Below, one piece after another: positions 7,318 to 63,981 of a DNA stretch of 64,000 nt (position 1 is its first letter; every line of letters begins with the position of its first letter). Source of the DNA: Yuukianura sp. NJ FZ-2021 (Eukaryota); contig CM102289.1 in the NCBI GenBank assembly GCA_046563655.1, positions 7,936,001 to 8,000,000 of the forward strand. Reading direction: 5' to 3'. A program made the position numbers and the translations under genes. The notes under the pieces are model-generated. The model was given only the letters and a program-made list of their open reading frames with translations, made no database searches and had not been told where the DNA came from.

Positions 7318-7953
7318 AACAAATTCACTACTGTGATCCTAAATTTAAAAGGTTCCAGAATATTGATTTTTGAAAACAGCATCACACCTTTTAACTTTCT
7401 ACAGAAGGACTTTTGGAAAAAGTCAGGATTAGGCTAACAAATTCACTACTGTGCATTTTCCTTTTTTATGGAAATTTAAAAAATTCCAGAATATTGATTT
7501 TTGAAAACAGCATCACACCTTTTAACTTTCTACAGAAGGACTTTTGGAAAAAGTCAGGATTAGGCTAACAAATTCACTACTGTGCATTGTCCTTTTTTAT
7601 GGAAATTTAAAAAATTCCAGAATATTGATTTTTGAAAACAGCATCACACCTTTTAACTTTCTACAGAAGGACTTTTGGAAAAAGTCAGGATTAGGCTAAC
7701 AAATTCACTACTGTGCATTTTCCTTTTTTATGGAAATTTAAAAAATTCCAGAATACTGATTTTTGAAAACAGCATCACACCTTTTAACTTTCTACAGAAG
7801 GACTTTTGGAAAGAGTCAGGATTAGGCTAACAAATTCACTACTGTGCATTTTCCTTTTTTATGGAAATTTAAAAAATTCCAGAATATTGATTCTTAAAAA
7901 CAGCATCACACCTTGTAACTTTCTACAGAAGGACTTTTGGAAATAGTCAGGAT
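7318..7953. repeat. 131-bp tandem repeat (minisatellite), ~4.9 copies
   Basis: CAGCATCACACC recurs at 7377, 7508, 7639, 7770 and 7901, an exact 131-bp period. Copies are nearly identical; the first is shortened. Confidence 0.97.
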
Positions 7954-9022
7954 CCATCAACACTGATGAAAAAATCTAACGGTTTCTCAAGCCGAAATCT
8001 GTAAATCGTTTTTTTTTCAAACCCATGTTTACCTCTTCAAAATTTTAAAATAACGTGTTATCCTGTTCTAAGCCCAGTTTTGCTGGCTATCCCCTGTTTC
8101 AGCATTTTGTCCAGGTTATATCCACTGGATAAATGGTTTCATCCGGTTTAGTAATTAAAATTTAGTAAGAACCAATTCAAAACTGTCAAGTTATTCATCA
8201 GATGCAAAATCATACGTTCGAAACCCACTTTTTTTACGTCGAAAGGCATACCGTAATGTTAACTACCCTACAGCTGGATTGAAAATTCAAAAAAGTATTT
8301 AATTTATTGATACTAATTACATTATTTTACTTACAACTAATTCATACCTAATGAAAAAAATTTACTTTATTATTTACTATTTAGTAAAGAAAGTGTTAAC
8401 ATTTGAAAACATAGTAATACATAAAACAATATTTGACTGACAAAAATTTGAAATTTTGGTATCGAATTTTTAAACAAAACTTTTGGTTTTTAAAACATCA
8501 GAACACATTACACTTAACATCAAACTGAACAAATGGACTAGATGTTTGGAAAAGTGAACAAAAAATTGTATTTCGTTCATGCAGATTTGCAATAGATATT
8601 TGAATGTTTAATATTTCGAGTTGTAGAAGAAACTAAAACTAAAACAATCTGTTACTGGTGACTAATTGCATTTTATTTAAACATTGTGTGTGTATAGTAC
8701 TCAACATTTTGTATTAACTTTTAGGCTTAGGTTAGCCGAACAATAATTTTGGTTTGTAGATTTGAGCGAACATGTTGCAACTTTTTCAAAAATGATGATT
8801 TCAAAAAATCTTCATAACTAACAAAGTTGGCTTACATTAGCTTAAAGCAAGCGAAAATTGAATTTCGAACAATTAAACAAACATAAAACCTAGCAAATTT
8901 CTACGTGATATTCGCATTTCCCGAAAAGTGATGACAAAGTTTTTCAAAATTTCTGTTTGACTTGCATCCAGCGTCCGATCTTGCGTAAAAAGCACCTTAA
9001 CCTTTACTGTGCGTCTTTTCTG

Positions 9023-9177: not shown

Positions 9178-12100
9178 TCATTTCACTGCGTCGTCGGATG
9201 CTGTATTGATTTTTTCTAAATCGTCGCATGACTTGGATTTTGGAGATCTGCTACTGCAATACCAAAAAAAAATTATTACTAATTTGAAAAAGAATTCGAA
9301 ATTTTTTCCCAGTTTTTTGAAAAATTATACCTTGACTTCCTGGCTACAATTCGTCGAGTGACTGTGATAAGAACATCTCCATTTTTGATTTTCTTAAAGA
9401 CAGCTACAGCTTCTGCGTGTGACAATCCTTGAAGTGGAGATCCATTTACTGTCAAAATTTCATCACCTAGAAAAAATTGAACAAAAAAAAAGTTTAGCTG
9501 AAGTTCAAAATTCACTTTTTCAAAAACCATTTTTCAAAATTCCATTCAAGTCGCCACAGACTGCCACTTAAACCAAAATCCCAGTAGCTGCGACACTCAA
9601 CATTTTCTAGATTTTAATACCCACTTCAAAAATTTTGAAGTGATCCTTGTGCCAACCTACGCCGTTTCCACAGTTACGTCTGGAAGGATTTCCCTTGCGA
9701 AGGAAGGATAAGAGGAAATCATAAATAGAAGTGTCAATATTTTCTCTTTTGAAAGACGAAACCTAACCTAACTTTAAGCCTGCCAAAAAGCTTCTTCTTC
9801 TCCCCCATGCCAAGGAATGTCACGTCTCATCATTATTTGCCTCCTCGTTCCGCACGTGGAAATAATCTAATCCAAGAACTTTCTCCTCCTTTCACTTCCA
9901 TAGACAAAATTAGAGTAATTGTCAAGTCTAAAGAGAAAGTCACTACACAACTACTATGCTACGGTGTAGTCTCAAAACTAATTTCATCTGAATAAGATAT
10001 CTAATCCTGAAATCTAAATGTAAAATTTAGAAATTCAAGGAGCTAGAGCATCTCGAGAATTCTGAAAACTAGGTTCCATTCATCACTTACCGTAAAAATT
10101 CTCATACAAGCCCAGGTTTCTATTCATTTTCTAAGTAAATTTTGTGCTCTACCTCCGGCTTCTATTGAACTGGAGACTCGGTTTCTATTGTAAAGCGGCC
10201 TTATTGGAACTTTTACGGTAAAAACTTACTCTTGCTGCCTTATGAATTAAGTATAGCACTTTGTACTGCCATGGCGTTTCTCATTACATTAATAACCTAA
10301 CCTACGCAAAAGCTTCTAACATAACCTAGTTCCAATTTAAAGTTTTCCTTTTCCTTAGTTGGAAACTGGAAATTTACAATTTCACAACCAATTTTAGTCA
10401 CTGCAAATAATCATAAGGAAAAAACCAAATTTTAGAAATAGTAGTTTGCACATCCAATTCCAAAAATGTCAAAAATGGTGGTTTAGATTTTGAACTCTCG
10501 AAAATTTTAGTGTAATGTTTAGTTTGGTGGAAAATTTTCCAAAATGTGTTGCAGCGTCGTCGTTCAATTTTCATAAAATTTAACTTTTTCCACCATGCAT
10601 AACATAATTTTTAACATAACTTTTTTCTCAAAATGAAAGTAAAAATAAAATTTTACCTTCATAGAGAGATCCCATTTCGGCTGCTTGTCCATTCGGAAAA
10701 ATCGTTTTGACGAAAATGCCCATGTGACCTTTAGGTGAATCTCTGCCGCCTACAATTGAAAATCCAAGGCCTTTCTTTCCCGCTCCTTTTTCAAAGGCAA
10801 TGACATGTGACTTGTAAAAGTAAGAAGAAGAGGAAGATGTCGAAGATGAAGTTGAGCCAGAACTTCCAGAAGATGAATTACTTCCAGAAGAAGAAGTAGA
10901 AGATGACTTTGGTTTTCTTGGTAGAGTACAGAGATTAGTCGTAATGTAATTGTAATTAGGACTTCCATTATTTTCAAATTGAACTCTGGAAGAGGCTGGA
11001 GCGTGAAATCGATTTTGACTTTGGATTACAGCATCTGCATCGACATTGTAATACGTGAGTGTAGAATGGCGTCTGTTCCGTTTAGACGATCCAACAGTCG
11101 CAGTTCCGCTGGAAACCAAGTGACCTCCAGGCGTGACCCCACCGATATTTCCTGGATGCAGAAACTGATGATCAGAGCAAGCTTCTGGATGCTCAGTGAC
11201 GGGTGACGGATGTTCGCTACTTGCACTTCGACGGTAGATTACCGGAACTTTCTTCCTCAAAGAACTTCGGTCTCCGTCACAGTGATCTTCTCCTGGAGAA
11301 TTCTCCAGGAGGGGGAGACTGAAAGTAAATGACGGTGGAATTGAACTTTTCCGTTGTACATTTGTCTGTTTTTTCAAAAATGGTAAATCTAGGGTGTAGG
11401 GAGGCTGGTGATGATTGGAGGTCACAAAAGCGTCGTCTTCTTGGAACGTTTCGACTTCAGCGATTGTGTCATGTGAAATGGAGATACCGCGTGACCGAGG
11501 TTGCAATTGGTCTGACTTTTTAGTATTCATCGTCCAGTCTGGTCCTAACAAGTCACGTTCTTCCAGTCCACCAGTTCTTGTCCTATTGAGCACTGCGATG
11601 TAGTCAGCTTCTGATGGAGGGAGACTTGTAGGGTGACTACGCGGAAGTTGATTTGTCGTTGTTGTGGTTGAGTCGAAGTTGGTAAAAATTTCGTGCGTTC
11701 CGGCCCTGGCGATTAGTAAGTCCAATTGAGCACAATTAATTGCAGTAACTTGAAGCATTAGATTGACTTCGGTTGGACTCAGACCGCGCAGGCGCTTGCC
11801 GTTGACGTTCATCAGCACATCTCCAGTCTCCAGTCGCCCATCTCTGTAAAAAAAAAATAGATTGAAAAATAAGTTAGAAAAAATTGTCCAAAAAAGTAGA
11901 AAAATGATATCAAACTCTCGTTAGAAACTTCCGCCAGCCGCCATCTATATGCTGAGTACAATTTTCCAAAAGTAGTTCGCACGACTCCATATGCATTAAA
12001 TTCTCATAAAAATCAACTTAAAAAAGAACTTCTTCAGAACATGACTTTTTTTTAGAACATACTGCTGAAATACTCCGTAGTTCCTTAAATTTTTTCTTTT

Positions 12101-15100
12101 TTGAAATAACTGTCAAAAACTTTTTTAAAAGTCGTACAACTCCCGCTTCAGCAACGATCCGTGAGCATAAAATTCCAATTTGCATTGAATTGCGTAACCT
12201 CCGCATAAGTTTGCTTTACGGGTTCGTTTGACTCCCTAACTTTTCGTTCACTTTTGGTCGTAAATATTTCCTCATAAAAAATTCGCATATTGCAAAAAGT
12301 TTACTTTTGGCGTTCTGAGTCATAAAATTGGCAAAGTAGGGTTCGGGTGATGCTTATGTTTGCTTTTTTTGAAACAAGCTGCCGGCAATATGTTATTCAT
12401 AGTGACTCCTATGCGTAATGTAAATATTGCGCAATATGTAAACTTTCAAATAAAGTGACAAAAAGTTTGAGTAGTTTCAAAAGAATGATCAAACATATCT
12501 TTTTATAAGCCTTCCAGAAAAAGCCCAACTACATAAATCATGAATTTTCAACGACAAGGGCACGCACGACGGCAAAACTTGAATTTCAAAGAACGTGAAT
12601 CTCAAAGACGCGTGCTTTTAGTTGCGGACATTTCAAGCACGTCGAACCATGAAAACGTTTTCGTTTTTTATAATAGTGCGGTTGTTAAAAAATTTTGGAA
12701 AGTTTATTCAGTGTATCGTAAGAATTATGTATGTAGAATTATCGGCTGTTCTTTTTTTGTGTATTTTTCCATTTGATATAAAATAAAATTGTGGAATCGT
12801 TTGTTTGCTGACGAATTTTTTTTGGACACTGAAAAGCGGCAAAATTTCAACAAATAAAAAGTTGAGCAACGCAGAAGTTTGACAAGCGTCTGCAGGAGCG
12901 TCACTTTTTATGAAAATTTGAACATGACATGAAAAACTTGCCCGCTCTCCCGCTTTCTCTTGTCCACTTTCTCCTACATCCTTGAATGTATTATTCAAAA
13001 ACCGGTTTTTCATATTTTAGTTTACATTTTTTGTTACCTTTGAGCTGGAGATCCACTTGCAACTGCTTGTACAACGTGTTCCAAAATCCCCTTGTCATCC
13101 AACTGACTCTGAATAGAAATTCCAAGGGACTCGTCCAAGGCCTTCCGAATATGGAACAAGTGAAATCGTCTTTTGGAGGACATGACTTGTGGTGGTGGGG
13201 TTGGTGGTGGCTCAAGGTGGCTCACTTGGCTTGAATCTTGCCCCGCCGCCAATAGTGACGGTGGTGACTCAGTCAGAAATGGAGATGGACTTGTGTCAGA
13301 CTTTGTACAGATTCTGAAAATCTCACGACTTTCGAGACATGGGATTCTATTTTTTCCCAAGACTGAGATGGGTCTGGCATAAATTGGTCTAGTACTCAAA
13401 TTACTATCAGTTTCAGTAGTTTCCTTTGGAGTCATCATGACACCAATGTTAGGGTGAGGGGACATAAAGTTAGTTTTTGGTGACACGATATCACTCTTGC
13501 GTCTTACTAGAGCCGTTTTGGACTTGTTCACTTGAAAACTAGTTTCAAAAGACAGGATTCGAGCTCCAACGCCATTTCCTGACCCCTCATCATCCCACTG
13601 TTCTGACTTCATTTTGACTTCATCTAACAAAACTTCAACACTTTTTGGTTTTTTCATATTCAAAGAACCAAGGCTCTGGTCGTCTAGATTTTTTAAACTG
13701 TCAGAGTCATATCCCGATTCATTAGATGAAATGTAACTGGATCCTGCCGTTTGCAGAGGGTTCAAGGGTAGGGGGCCCTTCGTCACCAGTTGATTCTGGA
13801 AAGAGGGTCTCTCCATCCTGTCAAGCATTTCACAACTGCTGCTAGCACTTTTGACTGTTCTGGGATTTCGACTAGATTCTACCCGGATTCGGGCATTACG
13901 GTCTCCCCCTCCTGCATTTCCCGGGAGATTTGAACTGATTTTCATACCTGAAGTATCACTAGCAGTTGTGGGGTAGCTGGCTCTCGAACTGGGACTGTTG
14001 CTTCGAGCTCTTTTGTTTCTTTTCACAACCAAAACTTGACTGTTCTCAGTAGCCTCGGAAGTACTTCTTGAGAAACTTGGAGGTAGATCCAGTCCGTCGC
14101 TACTTTGAGAACTGACGAGAGTCGTAATGGAACTGAGTCCTTTTGAGGGTAGTTGTTGTGATTGTGCTTCCTCAGGCAATACACAAAGTTTTGAACGGAT
14201 GAAGCCATGAGGAAAACCGAATTTTTTAGTCGATGGGGTGCAGGGAGTCGAAAAACCTTCGACGTCACTTCCTCCGCCGATGGTCGACACGAGGTTATCA
14301 AGGCTCTGGGCCTTCTTGGACGAAGGGGGCCCTTGGGGAGGGCCCTTATTGTTAGTATAGTTAGGATTAGTCATAGCATTATGCACTTGTTCCTGTCCCA
14401 CGCTAGTCTCAAAGGCTATAGTATGGGAATCATTTGTCATCGTGAGGCCATTAGTCATAGACTGACCACCGGGCCTCTTAGGAGAAACCGCAGAGTCCAA
14501 ATCTGTGGCTGGGTCATCTCCGGCCACGTAAGACGGCAGAGTTGACGTGGAACAGCTTCTAAAAAGTGGTGAACTCTTGACACCGTGGCGGTTGAAGTAC
14601 GGATGCTGCGACTGCGCAGAGTTTTGGTCACGCTTGGACACTCTAGCGGGACTTTTGGAACGACTGGAAGGTCGAAGCGTTCTGAACAAAATTTTTTCTT
14701 TGATTGACTCTACTCGATTGACTGCAGAAGACAAGCTTTGACCGTGGTGACCCACCGTGGGTTTCATCGTGGCACTTTTCCGGACACAGTGACCTTTGAA
14801 GTTAAGGTAAAACTCGTCTTGGGAAATGCTTGACATGCGCTGTGGAGTTCCTAATGTACAGGAACCAACAGGAGTTCTACTGCGACTGCGACATTTGTCT
14901 CCAAGGTTCTCCTCAGAAGCAAATGGTTTTCTATAGATTTGTGAATTTTTGACCTTTTGACCCTGAAAATGACCTTGAAACGAGTCGCGGTCACGCGTGG
15001 CTGCTCCTGAAGATGGTTTTTGCCTAAGGTCATCATCTGGCGTGACGAAGCCTTGTTTCGGTGGTTCTTCTGAGTAACTGCGATAATCATCTGTACTTTT

Positions 15101-18100
15101 GCTGGTTGTTAAGGAAAAACGCCATTGACGTTGCAAAGTTTTCGAATTTGAAGATTTTGAACTGACGGGAGACGGAATTTCGGAAAAATCCGAACTACAA
15201 CGAATGTCACTTCCATGCTTGAAATGGTTCCAAGTTTTGCCCATTTTCTTGCTCCAAGTTGCAAAACCTATAAAAAAGTAAAAAAAAAAACTAAAATAAC
15301 AAATTCCGCGTCAAAAAGTTTAAAAAGATTTTAATTACGAAATTTTTGTGGTCCAAATTTTTTAAACAGCAGTGCAAGTCCGAAACTGGAAAATGTTCAG
15401 CCCAAGCTTTTCTTTTCGTCAATTTTTTTTTGTAACTGGCATTTTTTTCCCAAATTTTTTTTTCTGCTTGGCGTGTCTAATTACTATTCCAAAAGGGTAA
15501 AAAATGAAAACGGAAAAAGGCTCAGCTTATTAATTTTTTGTTCTAAAAACTTTTTTGTCTCGTACAGCTTCCATTTTTGAATTTTTGAACAGCCGCTTTT
15601 TTAAAATTGCAACGAAGAGTGGAATTTCTTATTCAGCAAGACAACAACAACATAGGCTTAAGCATTAGCCCTCCTCCTGTGCCTGAATCCGCAAACAAGA
15701 TTAAGTTGTCTCATTTGCAATTTTCCTTGTCAGTGACTCCTTCACTTTGGCGTTTCATTTAAAGTCAAGGGCTCTTCTGGGAACATTCGTTACTTCACTG
15801 CTCCGAGCGAACATTCTGCGCCGACATCTTATCTCTGTGCAAAAAGTTGAAGAAAGTTCTATCTTTAGATCTTCTTGTTCCCATATGTCATGACGAAAAT
15901 TCCTAAGGACTTAGGCATAACATTAGTTCCACTTTGTCGTCACGAACAAAAATTCCCGCTAAAGGAAACCTTAAACCTAACACTTTTAGGTTCAAACAAA
16001 AACCCGGGAAGATTTGTGTTCAAAAGATTCTTCAATTTCAAACAACGAGACAGCTTAAGATCAGTTCAAATGATACTTTGAACAAAGGAATGAAAATAAC
16101 AATGGAAGGAAGATTCGAACCCATGACACATCTATCATTAGATTCAATCATCCATGATCTCCCAAACAGAACAATAAACAGATATGGGAAAATGGTCACC
16201 GTTTTTTTGTTCGTATTGTTAAAAAGTTTGTTTGATAATTTTGAAATTTTGAATTTGAAAAAAATGGAACCTAAAGAAAGTCATGGTTCGAATCTTAAGG
16301 GCGCGGCGGCTCTTTTTGTCTGAAAAGCGTGACGATAAGTCTAGCACGGCTTTTTCCCAAGGAATCGACCGCAGACTAAACAACAAAAAAATTCCATGAT
16401 TTTGCTTTCTAAAAAAAATGCAAAAATTTTTTTTTTGAAAACAAAATTATGGATCGGTGCTGTTTTTTTCTTTCAAATTCAGGCGGTAGCGCTCATCGCT
16501 GATATTGATCAGGACTAGAAAAGACGAGCTCAATAACAAGGAGTATTTAGGAAACAATGGAGCGCGTGCCGTATGAATTTCGGCCTGACTAGTTTGAATA
16601 CCGTGCCATATAATTTGAATTTCCCTCCAAAGATCAGAATCAGTTAGGACTCATCTGCGCACGATCATGCTTAAACATGCAAACGTCGTTTGCCAAATCA
16701 ACCGACAAGAACAATGGAATAATGCTAAAAAACGGAAACAGTTTTGAATTTTTTACTTTTTAAAAAAAAATTTGGTGGGGAATTTTCTGGTATGAACTGA
16801 TGATTTGAACAGATCAAGTTTTTTTTTGCTAAAAAATGCTATGTTGATTACTATTGCCGTCAAAACTGTCATGAAATTAAAGTTTTATGGTGCACGGGTT
16901 GTAAAACGTGTTTCAAAAATTCAAAATTGCAGTTTTTCAAAAAGAAATAAAATGCATGCGATTTCCAAAAATTTCCCATTTTGTTCTTGTTGCTAACCGG
17001 GTTCCTTTGAAGACTATGCGTCACACCAACAATTTTTAGAACTTTGTTTTTTTAACTTTGAGGTATCTTGAAATACGTGAATAGATATCCGTTGTTTTTC
17101 AAAAGTGAGTCATTTCCGTTTATTGGCTCCAAAAATAAAACAGGATGAATTTATGATTCAAAATATTTTGGTTGTTCAAGGAAGTGGCAAGTTGCGTACA
17201 CAAAACAATGACGACAAACTGTGGTGAGTGGTGAATAATACAACTCTGGATGTTGTGAGCTTAAAAGCTGAACTAAATTTTTGAAAAAAGGAAAGGAAAA
17301 AAAATTAGAAAACTTTTAGTTGATGGAATTGATGGAATGGTAAGAATTGTATTCCGTTGTTATCAGAAAATCCAAAAATAATAAAAACTTTCCCGAATTC
17401 TTTTCTTTTGTTTTGTCCGCTTTTTCTGCGTAACTTTCTCCCCCAATTTTCATTTTAGCTTTGGCTCAGAATTTATGGTGTGCCACCAAAGCCAAAAGTT
17501 CCTACGCCCATATCCCTCGTTATGAAGCAGAACTTTATCTACTACGAAATGACAAAAGACCGAAACCAAATTAAAACGCTCAAGAAAGTTTTTCATTCCT
17601 TTAATATGAAAAGAAATTCATCTCTTTTTACTTTCAAAACAAACCATTAAAATTTTCCAAATTTATTAACCTTCATTTTCTAATGATCGGATGCAAAAGT
17701 TTCAAATTTAATAGCTTTCCTGAACTTTCTCTTCCAATTTTTATTTTAATAGATTTCACATTGGCATATAACTGTTTTAAATAATAAAAAAAAAGCGCGT
17801 TAAAACTCATAATTTTTGTTTTCTTACAACGGCAAAAAACTTGTTACGAAAAATTCAAAAGTTTTCAAAATTCCATATTTCAAAACAATAGTTTTTGACG
17901 AAAATTATTTGAAAAGTGTTGCAATTAACTGTTTTGTGAATACCAGGAAAAGTTATTTTTCAATAGCAAGGAAATGAACGAGGCCTTGAACGTTTTAATT
18001 AAAAGTTTTACCGCCAAAACTTTTTGGTTTTCAATTAAATGTTTCTGAAAAAGGCCGTTTAAATTGCAACTTTGAACTTTCGTGCTGCCTTTAATGTGTG

Positions 18101-39324: not shown

Positions 39325-42300
39325 TCAAGCATCAATAAGATTGTCACATGACTGTGACTTGAGAGTGCGGTCCTTGGATTTCTTGGTGCGGCGACTCACA
39401 GTGACAACGACGCTGCCAACTTTTACTTTTTTGAATAACGTCAAAGCCTCAAGGTGTGTCAGACCATCCACCGGAGTTCCATTAATGGCCAAAACTTCAT
39501 CTCCTGTAAAAAGAAAAAAAGTAAATAAAACAACTATTTTACAATTTAACACCAGAAAAAGTCAAGTACATCAAAGAAAGTGAAGACAATGGAGTCACTT
39601 TCACCCGAAAGTGAAACTGAATCAGGAAAGCAATTTCGACCCTTGTCGCTACTTTTTAGACAAAAGTATCTCAATTATTTTGTTTTCTTTAAAAAAAGAA
39701 GTCTTCCATGTTAGGGCACCTTCAGAGAAAGTAGAAACTTTCTCTGTTACTTTTTACAAAGGAAAAGCTAGCTGACCAAAATATTGATCCAGAAAACCTT
39801 TGGTGAAAACCCTATGTCAAATAACTATTATTTATAGTTTCAGCGGGAAAACACCGGTTGGTAGTAATGTGGTCCAGCGCCCACGGAACAGCATAGAATT
39901 CCAAAAGAGAAAGTTTCAAAAACAGGCTGAAATGGGAACCGCAATGCCATTATTTTACTGATCTCTGACTTCCTGCAACTTCTTTGATTCCAAAACCCAA
40001 AGTAATCCAAAACTTTGTTTAAAAAAAACTTTTCAAAAAAAACTTTCAGCATAATGCTATATGCACCGTATATAGTATGCTGCACTATTTTCTGATCCTA
40101 CTTTTGTTCAAAGTTGAGTGACCTTTTCAAAAATTGTGGTCGTAAATGTAATAGCCACCGAATTTAGTTTTACCTGTTACGCTTCCAGACAGAAGTCTGG
40201 AGCCCAAATCTTGTCTGAATCCAAACTTCAGAAAACTAAGAAAAGTTTTATTGATTTAAGAGCATTTTAGGTTTGTATTGATTTTGGAGCCAGAAGCCTT
40301 AACCTGTCACTACCTCACAATCCTCCGAACAGTAATTACTAACCTAAGGTGACAGGTTAGCAGGTAACAAAAAAAAAGTTAGGCTAGGTTTGTGACCTGT
40401 CGTCGCCAAAGAACCTAAAAAAACTTGAAGTGGATTTCTCACCTTCGTGGAGCCGTCCATCATCCAGGGCTTGGCCATTAGGCAGAATACTTTTGACGAA
40501 GATGCCCATGTCCCCTTTGGGTGAATCCTTTCCTCCGACGACTGTAAATCCCAAGGGCTTCTTTCCTGGGCCCTTTTCATAAACTATCGTCATAGAAGTA
40601 ACTAGAGAGGACTTGGGTCTGCGCGGAAGTGTACAGAAAGAAGGTGAATCGTCTTTTTCAACTCTACTGACAGTAGCTTCTGTAGCTGGTGAGTCCAGGG
40701 CTAGGAAGGCCGTTGATGAACTAGATTCCATGAGCAGATGAGGTCTGTGATGAGAATGAGGTCGATGATGACCACTGTGGTCACCAAAGTGAGGTCGACT
40801 AGAACTGGATGAAGGGCGGTCAAGCAGGTCAGCTCGACTGAGTTCCTCGGTGGACATTTTGGCAAAAGCGATTTTCTTCCTTGGCCGAGCTTTGATTGTA
40901 CTGCTGAGGTCATCTTCGTAGCCTCCAGAACCAACAGGTCCATCATCGTTGTATGAAATCTTGATGATCGTTTTATTTGTAGCATCCTGAACGATTGAGG
41001 ATGATGAGGATGCTGAGGATGAAGATCTAATTGAGCCTGATCCGGTTGATCTTGGTCCAGAAGGAGGCCTGAGCACGACCAAATCCATGTCCCGCTTGAG
41101 CACTGATTTCAACTGCGAAGCAACTTCGACTGGAGACAATCCACGAACGAACTTTCCATTGATGCTGATGATTTCATCTCCAAGTTGAAGCTCTCCTTGA
41201 CTGCAAACCAAAAAAGTCAAAGTTAGATAAACTTAGGTTATGCCTAAAAATAACTAAGGTTAGGGTAAACAAATTCTCAAAATTTTGATTTCTCAGAATT
41301 TTGATTTGTTTGCAGAGTTATAAAGAGATAGAATAAGTAAATGGTTAGGTTAGGTGACGTCTCCAACGATAAGTGCATTTTGTACTTAGAAAGCCCAACC
41401 TTCTAGAAAAAGACTTTCTACTTTTGAAAATGGGCATGACAGTTCACGTGGAAAAGATTCAGTAGTTGACCCGTTAAGTTTCAAAAGTGAAGGTAAACTG
41501 GCAATATAGAGCACAAGGGATTGTAATAAATTGTAACAACTTTTCTTATGCTTTTTGAACAATGGGTTTTACAAATAATAAAATTTTATTAACTTTGAAA
41601 AACTGAATGTCGCAGGAGTAGAAAGCACAAGGCAACTGAGTGCTTCTGACGCAAATTTCTAAGAATTGAGACAATTCGTTCCAGAGAAAGTCGTTTTTGC
41701 TTTTCCCTGGAAAATGTCAAATGTCAATAAACATGAATTTGAAATTGGCATTGTCAGGAGTCATTTTCCTGGAAAAGGTAAATATTGAAATGGTCCTTGA
41801 TACAAATAAAAAGTTGTTCAAATAATTCAACTTTTAGAAAACAAGGCAATGCTAAAAAGAAAAAGTAAACAAGAGCTTGTGCATTAGTTTGTGCCCTTTA
41901 TGCCTTCAAGGAATAGAAACTTTTCGTTTTTGAAAAGATGGAAACTTTTAACTTTTAAAAAATTGGAAACTGCTTTTGTTAAATTCAAAGTTTGAGGGAA
42001 ACTATTGTGTGAAGAAGTGACTGGAAATGGGATTGTCGCCTTTTGCTATCGAGTAACTTTTCCATTTAGGTGACACAGAATTGCATTTAAAAAAAGTTAA
42101 GTTTGAAAATCGTATTATATCCTACCCCGATTATCTTCAAAACGGAACAAACTTTTTTTGAAAAAAACACGAACAAAAAGTTTCAGTTACTTTGGAACCT
42201 CTTAAGAGACTTTCAAAGCGTCAGCAAAAATGTTCTGCTTTCACTTTGAAACGAAAGTGAAAATTTTGAAAATTTGTTAACCTTCAACATTTTTGAACAG

Positions 42301-45300
42301 TTAAGCTTAACGTTTCCCCACAAAAAACTTCTATCTCGCATATGAAAATTTGTGGATTTTTCTTTTTCTTTTTCACCGCTAAAGAAGCGCATCTTTTTTT
42401 TAAGTACGGGTAATTGTAAACCAATTAATTTTTTCTGAAGAATTTAAAAATGAACCTGAAAATTGTTGGATTTTGAATGCTTTACATATGTTGGTTGAGA
42501 AAACTGTTCATGAAGGAATGTGGGTCGTGTATTTTTATTATATCGTTTGAGTGTTGCATTGCCTTGTTCTAGATTTGAAAACGGTGCTGGGATCTTTTTC
42601 AAATTTTTTTTTTCGAATCTTGGCTACTCGCATTCCTTCATGATTTCTTAAAGCTACACTTATTCCTCTAATCACATTGTTCATCAACCCTCAAAATTTT
42701 TTAAAAATTGTTTACAAATATTTCTGAGGACTAAAAAATTTCCAAAATTTTTGATTCCGAAAATCTCACCTTGCAATTGGCGATTCTGGATGAATAGTTT
42801 TGACAACATAGCCACACGCTGAAGCTTCATCTAAATTCTTATCCAGCGTTACTCCCAGCTCCAGCGTCGATGAAGTGCTAACCTCCAGCGCAGTTCCACC
42901 AAAAAAGCTCTTGGATTTTAAAAATGGGTGTTGAAATGGCGCCACTTTTCGAATTCGTACTAACTTATACTCTCCATGAGCATTTGAAGTTGGAGCTGCC
43001 GATAAAGTGTTACTAAAATTCTTGGATCTGACTGGTGTATTTGGACGTACGAGGGCCTTTGACCCACCGCGCCATGAGTTCCACCTTTCGGTGGGGCCGC
43101 TGCTGCCACCATGGTGGCTCGCTTCTGAATCTTGAAACAGGGAGCTGCTATCCAAAGTTTCGTTGACTATTCCACTGTCTCCGTCAGAATTATTACTAGC
43201 CGAACCTGATCCACTACCAAGTCGGTGGTCAAAGTCATCCAAGGTCACTCCAACGATGTCCACGGGGGTACTTGTACATAGGGGGCCCTCAGATTCGTAC
43301 AAAGGATTTGCTCTGAGGTCAAAGGTCGTCTCACCTTCTTCATCATCATCAAACATAACATTGTTAGGTTGAGACGGAATTTCACCAAAACTTAAGCTCC
43401 TCATCTTTCTCAAACTTGAATCCACCTCATCTTCGGAACAACCTTCATCTTGCTTTCTTTGTTGTTGTGAGGCCTCGTTTTTGTAAAATCTTGAAAAAAT
43501 TTTAAGCTTTGATTTCGGAGTTGGATGAGAGGCAGACGAGTTTTTGTTGTTATTGGAAAAGCATTTGTCTGAAACTTCTTTGAGCTTCAATTTGAGTTGT
43601 TCATAGGAAGATTCTTTGGAAGAAGACGATGCAGAGGAGCCTTTTGGAAGTGGAGGAAGACCAAACACTTTTCGTTCCCGTTCTGACTCAAGGGACAGGG
43701 TACTTGGTCTGGAAATCCTTTTCATGCAAGGACTACTTCCACTGATCATGGAATGATTCAAAGAATATTCTGAACCCGTCTCTGATCGAACAGACTCTCG
43801 TCGGTCTGACATGGAGTAATTGTTAGTGTTGACCTTCTTGTACCCCTTAGGAATTGGTTGAAATTCGTTAAGTCCGTTGCTACTCCAACCAATACCGGAA
43901 CTTCCATTTGATTGACGACCATATTTTTCATCCAAGCCAAGCAGGTCAAAGGGGTCAGACGGCATCGACAGCGTCCGTTCACTTCGAAACCGATTTCTTG
44001 AAATCTTTGAAGCTTCGTCAGCTTTAGTTGAACATGGTTGTGGTGGAGGTTGGACTTGAGGCAGAGGAGTTCTTCTTGGTGATTGGCCATAAGAAGAATA
44101 CGTATAAGCCCCGGAGTTTGTTAGGTTAAGGGACGGGGGTACTTCGGTGGATTCTGGCACAGGGTCGGTGGGTACTGGCGGGGGTGACCAGGGACGAATT
44201 CTGCCGGCATAGGACATGTGACCTTGAGGTTGACGATACTTGTGATTTGACGGAACAGTGAATTGGTGATTGTAGGCGGAAGAGGATGACGAGAGGTAGT
44301 CGTCACGGTTGTCATCAAGTCGACTACTCCGCTGCTGTGACTGTTCTTCTTCAATTGAATCTTGGCGCAGTTTTCTTCTCAACCATGGCGAAATGCCTTT
44401 TCAAAAAAAAAACAAGAAAAAACATTAATCACACAAATCGAGCTCAGCGAACAAAGAAAATAGATTTTTGGAGCACAAATTTGGGCAATGGAGCAATTTA
44501 ATTTTCCGAAAAAGTTTGGGACAAAAAAGTTTTTTTCTTCGAGATGGTCATGACCGTTTCAAAACCAAAGTTATAAACCCAAAATTTTGTGCAGCAAAAC
44601 ATATGGACTCGAAATTACAACAAAAACAGAGCCTTTTTTAACATTTTTGTAAAAACTTCCGAAAAAAAATTACGAGTTCTCACAAAATTGGATTTACTTC
44701 TGAATTTTGTTTTTGGAAGAATTGCAAAATTTTGAAAATTGTCAGCGCCATTGTTAAATTAACTTTCACTTTTTTTGCTAATTAAGTTAATGAATTATTA
44801 ATTACCAGTATTTTTCTGAATGAACATGAAAGCTGAATCATGAAATTAAAATTTTTTAATATTTCAAAAATTACTTTGCATTTTCCTTTCACTTGAGTTT
44901 CAAAATTGCATAAAAATGTGAAAGTAAAAACAATGAGTTACAACTAAAGTATAAACACAAAGAAAAATAAAATGACAATGGACAAATTATTTAAAATTAG
45001 GACCCAAGGAAAGACAAATTAACTTTTTTGGAATTTGACATATATGAGCATAAGGTGTGGACAACTCAAGGGAATTTCAAATTATGAAAAAATTACTCAT
45101 TTTTGAAAAATTGCTCTCGCAGACGCGCCTTTAATTTCACTTTCTACAAGAAATCTTCCGAGCCATTGTACTTGAGCCGAAACTTTGCAAAAATTTTGAG
45201 CGTCGCATCATTCACAAAATTTAACATCAAAAATTTTCGTGAATGATGATGAGCGATGAATCACAGTATTTTTGTGTCCTTTTCTACAGGAAATGGAATC

Positions 45301-57434: not shown

Positions 57435-59877
57435 TAACAAAGAATTCAGGATGTGACTTTTGGACAGGGCTGTAACCACCGCCGGGTAAAAACGGTCTAC
57501 TTGTTTCAACTTTGCAAATTTATTCCAAAAACCAAAACCAAATTCAAATTTTTCCACTCTTAGCCATTTTGGCAAACCTCGTAAAAACTGAAGCATGGCT
57601 TTTGAGGGGGAGGGGGATGACTCTTTTCAGTTTTAGCATTTGTAGTTTTTTGTACTTCTAAAAACTTTGTTAGTACAAACATAAACTCCAAAAATAGTGT
57701 TTTGCGCATCATCTCTAAAATTCTGTGCAAAAGTGTGTCCTTTGAACACATGATGCGAAAGATGACAATGAAAATGATGATTGCCATTCCATTTCAATTC
57801 AAGGTTTCCGTGTTTGAGGTTGTAAAAAAACACTTTTCCCAGAAGTCATACCTGAAGTGTAGTACAAAGTAAGTAGTGCAAGAATCTCTGCTTTTTAATT
57901 AAAAAAAAAGCCTCCCCTGACCATCTCATCTTCATTTTGTTCAAAAACAAGATTTATAAAACATAAAAAGTTTTCAAAAGATCAACCACTGCGTTGTTGT
58001 TTCCTAAACGAACCTAAATTGTTACAAAGACAATGAAATCGAGAGACAATGTTGAAAACAATTTGGCAAATGAGGATCAAAACAATGAAATAGTTTTGGT
58101 AATTGCAAGATGCTGCTGCGCCCTCTGTGACAAAAATTTCAAGAACGCTTTAAGGAGTGACCAAACAAAAGATGACATCGATACATAAATATAACCTACA
58201 AAAAATTTTAGTACTGTGCAAAGCGTGTTTTGTAAAATGTAGAAAAAAAGTAAATTTTTGATGACATGTTGAATTACAGTGGAAAAGTACGTCTGACTGT
58301 TCTTTTCATTGTTACTACTTCGTTTCGTTTTCAAAAGAATAAAAGTAAGTCTCTTCAATTTCAAAATGTAACCAAACTAGTTTTAGTGGAATGTTGGCGT
58401 CGGTGTTGTTTTTCTGTACACTGATCCTATGACCAATTCCTTCCTTTACTACTTAAAAGTAATTCAAAACAAAGACCAGCTTTTAAATAATTACCCTGAA
58501 ACTGAAATATGAACTACGAAATACTTGGGAATTACGAACTACTTAAATATTTCAGACCACAGTTGCAACAGAATCAGATAACAAAAATAAGAGGATTCAA
58601 CAGATACTTATTATTCAACGCGTCACTTTGGCCTCAGACGTAGCGTGTTACCGAAGTACAATGATCGGGTTCATGTGGCTCACGGCGGCAAACGGTTCAA
58701 AATGTTTGCGAACACAGTTCAAAATTACTGTCTGTGCAATGTACATGTGTCTGTTTCTATGTACTGCCTGCTTCTGCGCATGCGGTTGATGAATAGTGTT
58801 AAAAACTTCCGTGTTGGCTTTTTTTTCGCAGATGACGAATTCAACTTTTATAGAATTTTTTCTTTAGTAACTCGGATGCAAAAGTGCGTGTTTAGTGCAG
58901 GATGCGTGCACAATTTTTTCATAGGAAATTGGATTTCAATAATTTGAGTTCAATTATTGTAAAAACTGGGGCTAACAATTATTGATATGTATTGATTTGG
59001 ATTTGGCTTAAACACATTGTTTTCCACCAATATTACAAATGTCAGCAACACACCAACACACGATTGAATTTTTTAACCAAAATTCCTGATTTTTAAAACT
59101 ATTTCAAATTTTCCGTAAAAATTGTGAAGTTCTAAACGTAAAACTTACTTGTTTTAGTGAATGGTGTTTCCACAGATTCGAAATTGTCCAAAATTTGGAA
59201 AAACGGAGATGACTATGTTCTTTTGAGTTCTGTGAGGATAATGATGGCCTTCACTGATGATTCAGCTTAGTTACCATAACTAGTACGTAATTTGCGGTTA
59301 ATTGCAGTACGGAATCGGCAACAGTTAGGAAATTAAAGCTGCAAATTGATGACTTCTCCGCAGCAACTTTTCCAAAAAGCACAAACGGTTTGCGCAAACA
59401 ATTCAACCAAAATGGCAAACTTGTTGCAAAAAGTTGTGGTTTTCGAACAAACTAAAATTACACTTTTGACCTTTTGCACCAAAAGTTGAATTTGAAATCC
59501 TTGATCAAATTATGCAGTTATGTTTCAAGTATTTTTTGATGTTTTTCTGTAGCTGGATTCCCTTGCCTCACTTACTTAAAGGCCGCCTAGCTTCTCACTG
59601 CGGCCAGGGTTCCCAGATTCAGTCACTGGACATTTCAGTCGTCCGCCCGAAAGCGGCTTTTGGACGTTTCGGTCCAACCCCTTTCAGTCGACCGAAATGA
59701 CCGAAACGTATTTCCACCAAAATTGGGCGCGAAACTATTTGAATTTGAGGGTACAGAATTAGAAAATTAGTCAGGAAAATAGTAAATTAGTAGAAACTGG
59801 TCAAAACAACTGTACAAAGCACTTATTTTGAGTTTCAGGATAATTCTGACCTCAATCAAAGGTGAAGGGAGCAGTGG

Positions 59878-59923
59878 ACTTGGTTTGTCAGTGCCTGAGA
59901 AATCAGTGTCAGCGCAGCCAAGT
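59878..59923 (+). ncRNA. Putative structured RNA/ssDNA motif, copy 1
   Basis: ACTTGGTT-TGTCAGTGC-CTGA(GAAA)TCAG-TGTCAGCGC-AGCCAAGT. Confidence 0.5.
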
Positions 59924-60202
59924 TAATTATTTTCCTAAAATTGGGAGAGTTGTAGTTACAGAATTGAAATTATAAAGACCCTCCAGTGTTTTTCAATTCA
60001 GCAGTGACATAATTATTAAGTACTACATCTTCATGTCGTCTTCAGTTTGTGTAAACTCAGGGTAGTGTCAAGTGCCATAGCAGTACTTTAATCGGGCGGA
60101 AAGGAAGAGTAGGATATATATCGTTTAGCTTTAATTTTGAACAACTTCCGGTAACTTACTTATCCTAGTTTCACGATAATCCTGACCTCAATCAAGGGTT
60201 GA

Positions 60203-60271
60203 CGGAACAGTGGACTTGCCTTGTCAGTGCCTGAGAAATCAGTGTCAGCGCGGGCAAGTACTTCTGTTCCG
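60203..60271 (+). ncRNA. Putative structured RNA/ssDNA motif, copy 2
   Basis: CGGAACAG..ACTTGCCT-TGTCAGTGC-CTGA(GAAA)TCAG-TGTCAGCGC-GGGCAAGT..CTGTTCCG; compensatory stem changes relative to copy 1. Confidence 0.5.
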
Positions 60272-60523
60272 AAAATTGGGGAGAGTAGGAGTTTATAGCT
60301 TAAATTACAAAGACTCGTGTACTTCTCAATTAGCCAGTGACATATTTATTAGTGAATCGTCATTGTCATTGTTGCTATCAATCGGTGCAGGCAGGGATTT
60401 GTAGATTGTAATCAAACCAGTGCTTGTTTCAACCAAGGATCAGACGAAGTGACAAAGAAGGGTTACGTTTTGTAATGTTTATGTTCGTTTTTTATTTTCA
60501 ATAAATACAAATTTCCTTTATTG

Positions 60524-60582
60524 CCTTACCCAAATGGCGCTGACATTGTCCAGTGACAAGCACTGACACATTTGGGTTAAGG
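60524..60582 (-). ncRNA. Putative structured RNA/ssDNA motif, copy 3 (opposite strand)
   Basis: The minus strand reads CCTTAACCCAAATG-TGTCAGTGC-TTGTC(ACTG)GACAA-TGTCAGCGC-CATTTGGGTAAGG: the same two 9-mers with largely different but fully paired stems. Confidence 0.5.
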
Positions 60583-61857
60583 TCAGGTCAGGCGGCAATT
60601 GTAAGAGATACTTCAACTATGATCAGTTCACTTAAGAGTATTTTTTACAAAAAAGAATAAAGTGATGTTTACTTTGCTTTTGTGTTTGATCTGTTTAAGG
60701 AATGGAAGTAGGAATTGATGATATGAACCTTATTTTAAGTGTAGTTGGCAGTAAACCAACTAATCGAATTAATTTCCAAATTAATTCGAGTTTTTGACTA
60801 AATTAGGTATTGGAAATTGAAACAGCTGAGCATGTAAACAAGAAAAATAGAACCAAAAAGAAAGTTTGGATTTGAAATTTTCGAGTTTCGCGCCCCGCGC
60901 ATGCGCAAAGCGCATTGTGACTTTTGGTCGGACATTTCGGTCGTTTCAGTCATTTTGGACATTTAAGACCAAAATTTCAAAAAGTGACCGAAACTGGGAA
61001 CACTGACTGCGGCATTTCCAAAAAATCAGGAATCCTAGGCTTCAGGAAGGTGACTCATAAAGTGAATTGCACACAAAGTGGAAGATGTCTATTGTCTTTT
61101 CCAAGTCGTCCTGGTACACCTTGCCCTCCCTCGCCTCTGACGGCGTCCAATTTGCAGATGACCATCACGTCACACCAAGATGACAAACTTGACCGCTCCC
61201 TGTGTATGGCGCTCTTGCGTCTATGTTAACGTCACCAATTTGCGACAATTCGCACTCACTTTTATTTTGAGGTCACTTGTTCATTCACAAAAAAAATTGG
61301 GACCAACTTTGGTTCTCCAAATATTTGCTCAGTTTCGCCAAAAACGTTATCAAGCAAGTAATAATCAGTGCAAAATAGGAAATGAGGTCATGTCAACACT
61401 GTTTGACGGGAAGTTTTGAATTGTGTCCTGGATTGGATCCAGCATTTTTGTAGGTTTTGTTATGATGTTACGCAACATTTGCGTCCTTCTGAATTTAAAA
61501 TTTCGAAAAGCAGGTGTAGTTGGGCGAAATTTTTCGAACAAAAGATTTAAAAAAAATTTTTTTTTAGACTGATGAGGGTTGAATTAATCGATACGCAACT
61601 TGTCAGTTTTTACATGAATTGTTTTGTATCGTTGCAAAGTTAAAAAAAATGGAAGTTGTGAGCTGTACACCTTTGCATGTTTTTGTGTTAGCGTTTATAT
61701 GAAAGCTCGTGAGGGTGACAGGTGGTTTAAATTGGCATTGTGAGTCATCCTGTACATTTCAACTTTAATGGTGTTCAGAAGTTAGCTAAATTTCAACTAA
61801 CTTCAAATTCATCATGACGATTATTATAATAGCGAAGCTATTATGATAAAAGTGGTT

Positions 61858-61902
61858 TGTCTGTCTGTCTGTCTGTCCGTCTGTCTGTCCGTCTGTCTGT
61901 CC
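61858..61902. repeat. (TGTC/CGTC)n tetranucleotide microsatellite
   Basis: tgtctgtctgtctgtctgtccgtctgtctgtccgtctgtctgtcc. Confidence 0.95.
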
Positions 61903-62301
61903 AGATTAATTATCTCGGAAACTACTGGTCCGATTAGATTCCGGTTTTCACCAGTGACCATGTCATGACCCGGACTAGGTCACTATTGAATATGACCCCC
62001 GGGTGTCAACTCCTTCCGGGTCAAAGGTCAAGGTCAACCGGTTTTATCCCTGGTAACCGGGAAAATGACCTCTACAAAAGTTGTTCATCTCATCGAGGGG
62101 AACAACTTTTGTGTGTAATGTGTGACCCTAGGTCACCTGCTTCCGGGTCAAAATCGATTTCAAAGGTCATTTGTAATGCAAGTGTGTGTAAGAAAAACTC
62201 TGCTTGTGAGACTGGAAAGGCAATTGGCATGGGACTTGGTTCTCTGCTTAGCAAAAAATCTATTACGCAGTTGACATATACACTTTACACACTCATGCAC
62301 T

Positions 62302-62672
62302 GTGTCCACCGGGTGTCACCTGTCACTTGCCGGGTGTCACCTGTCACCTGTTAATTGCCGGGTGTCACCTGTCACATACCGCATGTCACCTATCACTTGC
62401 CGGATACCGGGTGTCACCTGTCACTTGCCGGGTGTCACCTGTCACGTGCCGCGTGTCACCTGTCACACTCACGTGTCACTTGCCGCGTGTCACCTGTCAC
62501 CCTCACGTGTCACTTGCCGCGTGTCACCTGTCACCCTCACGTGACACTTGGCGCGTGTCACCTGTCACACTCACGTGTCACCTGTCACCCTCACGTGTCA
62601 CTTGCCGGGTGTCACCTGTCACGTCTCACCTGTCACCTGTCACGCCTCAGCTGTCACGTCTCACATGTCAAC
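62302..62672. repeat. TGTCAC-based minisatellite (7-bp subunits, ~21-bp unit GGGTGTCACCTGTCACTTGCC)
   Basis: Dozens of TGTCAC cores with variable higher-order units; central repeat of the Helentron-like element. Confidence 0.95.
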
Positions 62673-62969: not shown

Positions 62970-63981
62970 TTAATAATAACCACCGTAGTTACTGTAAGTT
63001 GGCCCAGCGTAACCGTAGCCACGCCCCTTCCCAGCTCCTCCAATGGCTCCACGTCGATAAAGTCCGCCACCGTATCCACCACCATAACCACCATGACCAC
63101 CACCGTAACCGCCATGACCACCGCCATAGCCACCATGACCACCACCAAACGGTTTTCCGTGGCCGTGGCCACCGTGGCCACCGTAACGTTGCGCATGTCC
63201 GTACTGTGGTCTCCATCCTTGCTGTCTCCAGCCACCGCCATGTCCATGGTTTCCGTGGTGGCTACCGTGTCCGTGCCCTTGATTTCGCTTAAAATGGTTT
63301 CCAAGTTTCCCACAGGCTCCGCTTACGTAATGCTCATGTTCAAGTCCTGGTCCTGGAGGGGCACCTAGACCGTGAAAAATCAAAAATTTGAACTGAATTT
63401 CAAAATTTCGATTATTTTTTTTGAAACTTACCGAAAGTTCCCGAGTGGCAACCTTTGTGGTCCCGGTAGTACCACCATCCGCCTTGACCCCAGCCACCAT
63501 AGCCTTTCTTTTTGCCGCGACCTTGTCTAGTGTAAGTGACATAGAGTTGTACTGGCTTAGCCTTTACTTGATACTCTTCATCTTCGTAACTCGACACAGC
63601 ATCAGCATAGTTGTCGTAACCTTGGATACTGGCGTGGGAACTCGGGTAAACTGGCACAGGATGATGGAGATCTTCGTAGTTTCTATGTGAATACTGTCCA
63701 TCAGTGACTACCGCAAGAACGCCAATCAACAGCACAGAACCCTAAGATGAAATTTCGAAAACACAATTTTTAAAAACTTTATTCAAAATATGTTTAAAAA
63801 AAACAAGTGTAGTTGGGTAAAATTTCAATTTGGTTGAAGAATTTGGCAAAGGTCATTGACCTCTTCGTTTTCCCTACGGCGAGTAACGCGTTTTATGTGT
63901 TGGCCGTAAATTTTTTACTAAAAAATTTTGGAATTGCTAATTTTATAGGTTTGAACTTGAACTTACCAGAAATACTTGCAT
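62970..63981 (-). CDS. Secreted Gly/His/Tyr-rich protein (cuticular-protein-like or Gly-rich antimicrobial precursor), ~239 aa
   Basis: Exons 63981-63967 (MQVFL|gtaagt), 63741-63432 and 63364-62970 join in frame (720 nt). Signal peptide MQVFLGSVLLIGVLAVVTDG, an acidic segment, basic RQGRGKKK, two Cys, then GHGHG and (GGYGGGH)n repeats. Confidence 0.85.
63850..63862. promoter_or_regulatory. Perfect IR1 palindrome (EcRE-type) in the intron after the ATG exon of the Gly/His-rich gene
   Basis: AGGTCA-T-TGACCT. Confidence 0.55.

Follow-up and report, generated by a model that had tools for sequence, protein, structure and literature searches.

Inward-facing hairpin modules with invariant boxes and covarying stems in both arms of a hAT-like non-autonomous transposon of Yuukianura

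Transposons of the hAT type are marked by an 8-bp target site duplication (TSD), short terminal inverted repeats (TIRs) that start with CAG (consensus YARNG), and subterminal repeats. The transposase that moves them has a BED finger and DDE and hATC domains. The subterminal repeats are bound by the transposase and reportedly include the AAACGG hexamers of maize Ac and the repeats recognised by the BED domain of Hermes. They are short boxes in both arms, located inside the TIRs in mirror orientation, and are kept in non-autonomous derivatives. The same description applies to a hairpin module that we report here from a 64,000-nt stretch of the Yuukianura sp. NJ FZ-2021 genome (assembly GCA_046563655.1, contig CM102289.1, positions 7,936,001 to 8,000,000; hereafter the window), where three copies lie within a hAT-like element at 59605-61005 (+). 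The subterminal repeats of hAT elements are thus the closest kin of the module in function, and bulge-helix-bulge substrates and folded recombination sites are the closest in shape. However, the subterminal repeats known from hAT elements are plain sites in duplex DNA, dispersed in either orientation, whereas the module consists of direct boxes in a nested palindrome with covarying stems. The element also bears ordinary hAT-type subterminal repeats (TTTCRGTC), whose sequence is different from that of the boxes.

Among the systems with a similar shape, the bulge-helix-bulge substrates of the archaeal and eukaryal tRNA-splicing endonucleases consist, like the module in one of its two predicted registers, of an outer helix, a bulge, a 4-bp helix, an opposite bulge and an inner helix. 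In both cases, the arrangement is pseudo-two-fold, and what lies between the bulges varies and can be dispensed with. On the other hand, the bulges of the known substrates are 3 nt long and recognised mainly by shape, while the module would have 5-nt UGUCA bulges and has invariant boxes and an animal DNA transposon as its host. The integron attC sites and the end hairpins of the IS200/IS605 elements also combine variable paired stems with short conserved unpaired or extrahelical bases. A dimeric enzyme reads the folded DNA in these systems, and the unpaired or extrahelical bases give specificity. They differ from the present case in being bacterial, in using tyrosine or HUH enzymes and in moving as single strands, whereas hAT elements cut and paste duplex DNA. 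Precursors of microRNAs (miRNAs) or hairpin RNAs that derive from miniature inverted-repeat transposable elements (MITEs) are likewise hairpins of 60-70 nt on non-autonomous DNA transposons, but conservation in our module peaks in the largely unpaired centre of the hairpin and not in its arms. Since the 3-nt bulges are absent here, and since the bacterial systems rely on other enzymes and on single-strand transfer, none of the compared systems fits as a family.

Each module is built of an outer stem, the box TGTCAGTGC, an inner hairpin, the box TGTCAGCGC, and the other strand of the outer stem. TGTCAGTGC is located at 59886 (+), 60222 (+) and 60568-60560 (-), and TGTCAGCGC at 59907 (+), 60243 (+) and 60545-60537 (-). 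All six boxes stand where the original prediction had placed them, the two 9-mers are identical in the three copies, and the stem sequences and inner hairpins read as given there. The word TGTCAGYGC has seven exact matches in the window against 0.45 expected, a number reached by none of 100 shuffles. Six of these matches form three pairs with TGTCAGTGC ahead of TGTCAGCGC on its own strand, and the seventh, at 44740, is isolated, without partner or stems. The outer stems of the window copies are 8 bp long and the inner stems 4-5 bp; copy 2 has the outer stem ACTTGCCT ... GGGCAAGT and the same inner hairpin as copy 1 (CTGA-GAAA-TCAG). In copy 3, the stem runs on to CCTTAACCCAAATG/CATTTGGGTAAGG with one bulged A (14 nt versus 13). 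The coordinates first proposed were right for copies 1 and 2, but copy 3 has its core at 60529-60576 and extends over about 60518-60588, in place of the predicted 60524-60582. Copies 1 and 2 in the left half of the element (+) and copy 3 in the right half (-) all face inward, with TGTCAGTGC followed by TGTCAGCGC from the nearer end; in this copy of the element, 270-620 bp separate them from the ends. A search of the window with model R1 and filters off returned these three copies only, the next match having 11.7 bits and an E value of 1.6.

The stems of the modules covary. In the three-copy alignment, 45/45 stem cells hold standard pairs and 8/15 pairs are altered on both sides, which bears out the covariation originally described; the count is suggestive, coming from three sequences, two of them paralogous, and without a formal test. 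The observed covariation score was reached by 0/500 shuffles, and pairing falls to 29-44% when the partners are slid by 1-3 columns. Copies 1 and 2 are paralogous, each lying in one of the 336-bp tandem units. They agree at 30/30 positions in the centre, against 120/170 in the rest of the unit (P ~3e-5), their outer stems differ at 4/16 positions, and the arms of copy 3 are unrelated to both. The left and right modules have the boxes in common with no likeness in stem sequence, and yet all stem cells pair. Since the boxes were kept and the stems stayed paired while the left and right stem sequences diverged completely, the pattern would imply a long-term constraint on the boxes and their palindromic frame within the transposon lineage.

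Two registers are predicted for the centre of the folded module. The first, which is that of the original prediction, bulges a U, pairs G with C and U with G, and encloses a 4x4 loop containing tandem A-G. In the second, the GYGC parts of the boxes form the 4-bp helix GUGC:GCGC, and a 5-nt UGUCA bulge is left on each strand. The two are within 0.5 kcal/mol of each other with RNA parameters, and the second is better with DNA parameters. Both registers are pseudo-two-fold, and either candidate fold would therefore suit the dimeric-protein site that had been suggested for the boxes. GUGC:GCGC can pair in 3/3 window copies; since its four pairs never vary, covariation cannot choose between the registers. 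The T-G wobble of the possible GYGC helix is invariant in every instance, the T/C difference between the boxes being fixed by the search pattern in the two instances from outside the window (L049 and L108, described below). The RNA fold of copy 2 has an energy of -34.7 kcal/mol and a z score of -3.75 against shuffles, and that of copy 3 a z score of -2.5; the DNA folds have z scores of -4.54 (copy 2), -3.95 (copy 3) and -4.7 (L049). Only Watson-Crick pairs occur in the stems of copy 3 and L049, and the loops vary among GAAA (copies 1 and 2), ACTG (copy 3) and GT (L049).

Some further sequence features were noticed around the modules. The word TGTCAAGTGCC at 60066-60076, in the spacer between tandem units 1 and 2, equals the first box with an extra A and has neither partner nor stems, and is therefore possibly the remnant of a box. 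A (C)TGACCT word, which reads AGGTCA on the complementary strand and resembles a nuclear-receptor half-site, is found upstream of each hairpin in the orientation of the hairpin (59847-59852, 60183-60188 and 60580-60590), 31 nt before copies 1 and 2 and doubled directly before copy 3. AGGTCAGG is present three times against 0.02 expected, and CAGTGGAC lies immediately 5' of copies 1 and 2.

The 1401-bp element that encloses all three modules was the sole solution of a scan for TSDs and TIRs. Its 8-bp duplication, its short TIRs of the YARNG type starting with CAG (CAGGGTTCCCAG versus CAGTGTTCCCAG, 11/12 positions) and its subterminal repeats identify it, by its sequence hallmarks, as a non-autonomous hAT-like transposon, and the transposon on whose two strands the modules had been predicted is now delimited. 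TTTCRGTC is present in eight copies, in both orientations, within ~100 bp of the two ends, and the element has five copies of GACCGAAA, where the remainder of the window would predict 0.02. In the open reading frame (ORF) lists of the window, the element has no ORF of at least 150 aa.

The composition of the element shows several other repeats. CAGTG/CACTG is found 14 times against ~2 expected, and CAGTG is the start of the right TIR; this richness hints at transposase-related sequence turnover. The 11-mer GTCACTGGACA at 59621-59631, 17 nt inside the left end, recurs at 60547-60557 (-) as the inner hairpin of copy 3. Part of the left arm (59709-59770) repeats the post-hairpin part of the tandem unit (59927-59975), with TTCC-AAAATTGGG and then ...ACAGAATT, and the array of tandem units seems to start inside this arm. 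Each tandem unit also has the second hairpin claimed for copies 1 and 2, which is predicted weakly by RNAalifold from two sequences and includes several plus-strand G-U pairs that would be A-C on the other strand. The conserved CAGTGACA was recovered at 60002 and 60335 and has one more copy at 60551. The coordinates of all these features are collected in Table 1.

Table 1. Features of the hAT-like element and joints found in its family members (window coordinates).
Feature	Position	Strand	Basis or detail
TSD, left copy, ACTGCGGC	59597..59604	.	8-mer identical at both element flanks
Left TIR, CAGGGTTCCCAG	59605..59616	+	12 bp
Left subterminal region, five TTTCRGTC repeats	59617..59710	.	59633+, 59667+, 59682+, 59697-, 59706-
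Tandem unit 1 (hairpin copy 1, second hairpin, CAGTGACA)	59831..60018	+	direct-repeat families D1, D3; alignment A1
Hairpin copy 1, ACTTGGTT / TGTCAGTGC / CTGA-GAAA-TCAG / TGTCAGCGC / AGCCAAGT	59878..59923	+	model R1, 67.9 bits
Second predicted hairpin, unit 1 (AATTGGGAGA ... TTTTTCAATT)	59938..59998	+	RNAalifold, two sequences, 10 pairs; weak
Tandem unit 2 (hairpin copy 2, second hairpin, CAGTGACA)	60167..60351	+	direct repeats and alignment
Hairpin copy 2, core 60214-60259, basal stem CGGAACAG/CTGTTCCG	60203..60271	+	model R1, 67.6 bits
Second predicted hairpin, unit 2 (AATTGGGGAG ... CTTCTCAATT)	60274..60331	+	RNAalifold
CAGTGACA box	60002-60009, 60335-60342, 60551-60558 (inside hairpin 3)	+ for 60002 copy	3x versus 0.09 expected
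Hairpin copy 3, CCCAAATG / TGTCAGTGC / TTGTC-ACTG-GACAA / TGTCAGCGC / CATTTGGG	core 60529-60576, whole 60518..60588	-	model R1, 59.2 bits
Right subterminal region, TTTCRGTC repeats	60917..60993	.	60935+, 60944+, 60993-
Right TIR, CAGTGTTCCCAG	60994..61005	-	11/12 positions as left TIR
TSD, right copy, ACTGCGGC	61006..61013	.	perfect match to left copy
Joints just before hairpin 2	59747>60207, 59746>60207, 59728>60210		contig joints
Joint from end of hairpin 2 to just before hairpin 3	60257>60509		contig joint
Joints just after hairpin 3	60577>60822, 60593>60980		contig joints

Other members of the family were found in the same genome. They were seen in short contigs from public DNA sequencing of this organism, the best run possibly being the source sample, and the evidence covers the joints and differences listed, an extent on which invariance of the boxes across the family cannot be claimed. 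One contig represents an empty site, fusing 59596 to 61006 with 8 letters shared at the joint. The element termini are matched by many same-genome contigs, many of which carry internal-deletion joints. Since both the empty site and these matches and joints exist, the element belongs to a multi-copy family and is polymorphic or heterozygous. In several family copies, among the joints listed, the deletions end within ~10 nt of the hairpin borders and the hairpins are retained (Table 1). The summed contig depth, which is not equal to copy number, is 2837 at hairpin 2 versus 448 and 766 beside it, and 1187-1522 at hairpin 3 versus 327 and 400 beside it. At position 60252, the window has a G that forms a T-G pair in copy 2, and 18 same-genome contigs have an A that forms a T-A pair; this T-G pair is therefore private to the window copy.

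To find instances outside the window, the pattern TGTCAGTGC-N8-26-TGTCAGCGC was scanned in metagenome and viral contigs, with at least 120 metagenome loci. There are at least 139 distinct matches to this two-box pattern, mostly hexamer tandem repeats in GC-rich DNA, and a typical listed match has a best Watson-Crick outer stem of 2-4 bp and an inner stem of 1-2 bp. An outer stem of at least 6 bp together with an inner stem of at least 4 bp is present in 1/139 matches listed (L049) versus 3/3 window copies, which by the same measure have outer and inner stems of (6,4), (7,4) and (9,5). L049, on a metagenome contig with 40% GC and intron-like stretches, reads AGTCCG / TGTCAGTGC / CAGAAGTAGAC-GT-GTCTACTTCTG / TGTCAGCGC / CGGACT. 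All 17 of its 17 stem pairs are Watson-Crick (outer 6 bp, inner 11 bp), and its stems are unrelated to those of the window. The module lies in the sense orientation of a 137-codon open frame, with 33 nt from box to box, and a neighbouring tandem repeat holds a decayed copy in which, by eye, the inner stem has one compensatory change from G-C to A-T. No transposon ends were detected at L049, its flanks resemble the window units at chance level (p 0.15-0.98), and tblastn of its protein against the window units gave no match (best E 1.9, elsewhere in the window). The frame matches no Pfam family at E <=0.1 and has no homologue among longer proteins.

The second instance of interest, L108, on a metagenome contig with 38% GC, has both boxes exact, a 9-nt spacer and an outer stem of only ~4 bp. 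It contains the element words TGACCGAAA, AAAATTGGG, CAGCAGTGAC, CAGTCACTG and TTTGAATTTGA and has degenerate box pairs on both strands. L108 and the element have 22 non-motif 9-mers in common, whereas 200 shuffles gave 11 on average and 23 at most, and BLAST detected no similarity between them apart from the boxes. From these shared words, we tentatively regard L108 as probably a distant relative of the same transposon family.

Among the other matches, the GC-rich ones are mostly (CAGYGY)n hexamer arrays of an unrelated class (L004-L010, L022, L031-L034, L083, L091 and others). Two were set aside as chance: L098 has a 7-bp outer stem only at offsets of 5 and 2 nt and an inner stem of 2 bp, and L109 has a 6-bp outer stem in GC-rich DNA and an inner stem of 3 bp. 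On the contig of L049 (625-993 and 500-545), the frame downstream of the hairpin shows by eye motifs like those of DEDD exonucleases (AIDVE ... SEDFSSLD).

We tentatively favour the view that the hairpins are a cis-acting protein-binding module of the hAT transposon arms that acts on DNA, to which we assign a probability of roughly 0.4. The transposon, the placement and orientation of the modules, the conservation of the boxes and the covariation of the stems are observed, and from them we infer protein binding, the identity of the protein, and whether the folded or the duplex form is recognised. Constraint in a non-autonomous DNA transposon falls most obviously on sites for the transposase or a host factor, and the inward symmetry is as expected of DNA sites read by a protein that treats both ends alike; for these reasons, a cis-acting DNA site is preferred. 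The identical core of copies 1 and 2, the hairpins retained at the deletion joints, the exact boxes of L108, the Watson-Crick stems of copy 3 and L049, the T-A pair that most family copies have at 60252, and DNA folds well below their shuffles also count in its favour. In such a mechanism, TGTCAGTGC followed by TGTCAGCGC would be putative binding sites for the family transposase or a recruited host protein. Binding to the boxes could add to that at the TTTCRGTC subterminal repeats and aid end recognition or the pairing of the two ends. The palindromic frame may let the DNA fold back: supercoiling could extrude it as a cruciform, or a hairpin could form where a replication fork exposes single-stranded DNA. 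In the folded form, the boxes would lie opposite one another with a pseudo-two-fold symmetry that would fit a protein dimer.

Whether the fold or the boxes alone would be read is a matter on which the instances differ: the fold is favoured by stems that covary in 4/5 instances, and the boxes by themselves are favoured by L108. The original prediction had named boxes that act as duplex sites without regard to the stems as one of the cases that would refute it. L108, with exact boxes and poor stems, leans toward this case.

Several points weigh against a DNA-level arm module. No transposase was seen, and no autonomous partner, although no search of the genome aimed at the latter was made. The perfect module of L049 lies in an open frame without transposon ends or homology to the window flanks, and a pure transposition signal does not explain it. 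We know of no single-stranded stage in the cut-and-paste transposition of hAT elements. Boxes that act only as duplex leave the covarying stems unexplained, while a fold that is needed makes the weak stems of L108 awkward. An invariant T-G wobble, as in the possible GYGC helix, is a trait more often met in RNA motifs. Between the boxes and the TTTCRGTC repeat, only 5-6/9 positions match, and that the same protein binds both is a guess. In addition, the family evidence consists of short contigs and of the differences and joints listed for them.

An RNA function is the main alternative, and a serious one. The module may be a structured RNA element on the box-sense strand, in which the pseudo-two-fold loop or double bulge binds a dimeric RNA-binding protein for stability, localisation or export; copies of the transposon would carry the motif into transcripts of the host, at least one mRNA among them also making use of it. 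Covarying stems around invariant unpaired boxes are the classic signature of an RNA motif, the RNA folds of copies 2 and 3 lie below their shuffles, copies 1 and 2 have a GAAA tetraloop, and the second hairpin of units 1 and 2 uses G-U pairs that become A-C on the opposite strand. This explanation is kept alive above all by L049, whose copy is in sense, in frame, fully paired (6 bp and 11 bp) and outside any visible transposon, with a decayed neighbour that carries a compensatory change, and by the U-G wobble of the GYGC helix, which is the same in all instances. However, it is not evident why a non-autonomous DNA transposon should need a signal in RNA, the loops differ among instances, and L108 retains the boxes without convincing stems. 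The G-U pairs from which plus-strand RNA had been argued proved to be weak evidence, since the two in the main stems are copy-specific, being private or derived from single transitions, and copy 3 and L049 have none. Moreover, modules that face inward from the two arms fit a cis-acting DNA site better than a single transcript, from which they would not be expected and which would have only some of them in sense. Rfam also gave no support: there were no matches at the gathering score in the whole window (release 15), and at E values up to 10, no match in 58500-62000 overlapped any hairpin, in agreement with the original statement that no known family was recognised. The ribozyme proposed at that time thus found no backing, as no Rfam ribozyme family appeared at E up to 10. 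Taken together, we consider an RNA element unlikely. A more specific form of RNA use, a mini-intron like the bulge-helix-bulge substrates, is far less probable. A dimeric endonuclease would cut at each UGUCA bulge and a ligase would rejoin the ends, removing 21, 23 or 33 nt and leaving one box in the hairpin loop. A GUGC:GCGC helix with UGUCA bulges on opposite strands between the outer and inner helices would have exactly the h-B-H-B-h' topology, this register is close in energy to the 4x4 loop or better, the direct repeat of the box is what a symmetric substrate requires, and loss of the 33 nt between the boxes of L049 would preserve the frame, although the chance of this is 1 in 3 anyway. 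On the other hand, the bulges have 5 nt in place of the defining 3, the 4-bp helix is invariant and gains no support from covariation, and among the joints listed, the 21-nt box-to-box segment is missing from no DNA contig. The animal tRNA-splicing enzyme is not known to take such substrates, and the loop consensus of IRE1 is unmatched.

The module may also have no function of its own, the palindromes having arisen incidentally through repair, slippage during replication or hairpin processing linked to the transposase, and the boxes being alike only since the copies are young. Palindromes are known deletion hot spots and the borders of the hairpins are where the family joints fall; in addition, copies 1 and 2 are recent tandem paralogues, and the element is rich in CAGTG. 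Simple inverted duplication, however, cannot yield direct boxes inside a palindrome, and the left and right stems are unrelated and yet come with exact boxes and full pairing. The contrast between the core and the flanks of copies 1 and 2 (30/30 versus 120/170) also speaks against by-products, as does L049, which repeats the architecture in an unrelated context as the sole one of the 139 matches listed. We therefore regard this explanation as doubtful, somewhat more so than an RNA element. Small-RNA precursors of a miRNA-like or hairpin-RNA-like kind seem as improbable as a mini-intron. Transposon-derived hairpins are a known source of miRNAs, copies 2 (69 nt) and 3 (71 nt) are like arthropod pre-miRNAs in size and energy, and the 3' arm would begin with UGUCAGCGC in every copy. 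But the centre is best conserved and the arms vary, which is the reverse of miRNA families; the boxes stand opposite one another mostly without pairing, an arrangement ill suited to Dicer products; copy 1 has no long stem; and no miRNA family was matched in Rfam. A broader idea, that the module is a new pseudo-two-fold motif of soil arthropods, with two UGUCA bulges around a GYGC helix or the equivalent symmetric loop, recognised in its folded form by a dimeric protein, spread by a hAT family and also working in host transcripts (for example, as a bulge-helix-bulge-like site for excision of 21-33 nt without the spliceosome, which the in-frame copy of L049 would permit), is a speculation that we hold to be quite unlikely, though less so than a mini-intron or a small-RNA precursor.

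Known elements were also compared and rejected. A spliced-leader or small nuclear RNA gene, considered for the tandem units, is not supported, as no conserved Sm-like site lies between the hairpins and the context of copy 3 differs. An H/ACA pocket was rejected since neither an H nor an ACA box follows any copy. The core sequences of the selenocysteine insertion sequence, the iron-responsive element, and the hairpin and hammerhead ribozymes are absent by eye, and none is matched in Rfam. For an IRE1-type site, besides the unmatched loop, the topology is nested and not side by side. A tiny nested transposon with a 9-bp target duplication can be dismissed, since all instances have the same 'duplication' and the same T/C difference with different stems. 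A kink-turn requires a 3-nt bulge followed by tandem sheared G-A/A-G, and here UGU is followed by C on either strand. In the literature, both 9-mers together were found in no paper. The listing for hAT elements or MITEs in Collembola comprised, by its entries, only ecology and mite papers, and in that for bulge-helix-bulge with transposons, no title or opening of an abstract pointed to transposons of animals.

The window is animal DNA: long ORFs of the bacterial type are absent from it, and it contains exons of PDZ-domain proteins. Two sets of long exons at 10628-15310 (-) and 40384-44400 (-) encode serine-rich PDZ-domain proteins with similar PDZ segments and have the look of neighbouring paralogues. 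Among named proteins, a collembolan PDZ protein is nearest to one PDZ exon, with 39% identity. At 62295-62670, a GC-rich minisatellite of TGTCAC/GTCACC words with periods of 21-34 bp is located just upstream of a glycine- and histidine-rich ORF at 62970-63563 (-), and a tandem array at 7341-7995 has a 131-bp period with copies that are 85-98% alike.

The motif is compact (46 nt) and sharply defined, and is hence easily testable. If the modules are cis-acting sites, this would be, to our knowledge and from a limited literature check, the first hAT family with structure-dependent arm signals and covarying stems, and it would become testable whether cut-and-paste transposases read folded DNA. If the RNA reading is true, an RNA module of a new sort, bound by protein or able to excise itself, would be carried by a DNA transposon through the genome of an animal and into coding sequence, which would be a new route for rewiring transcripts.

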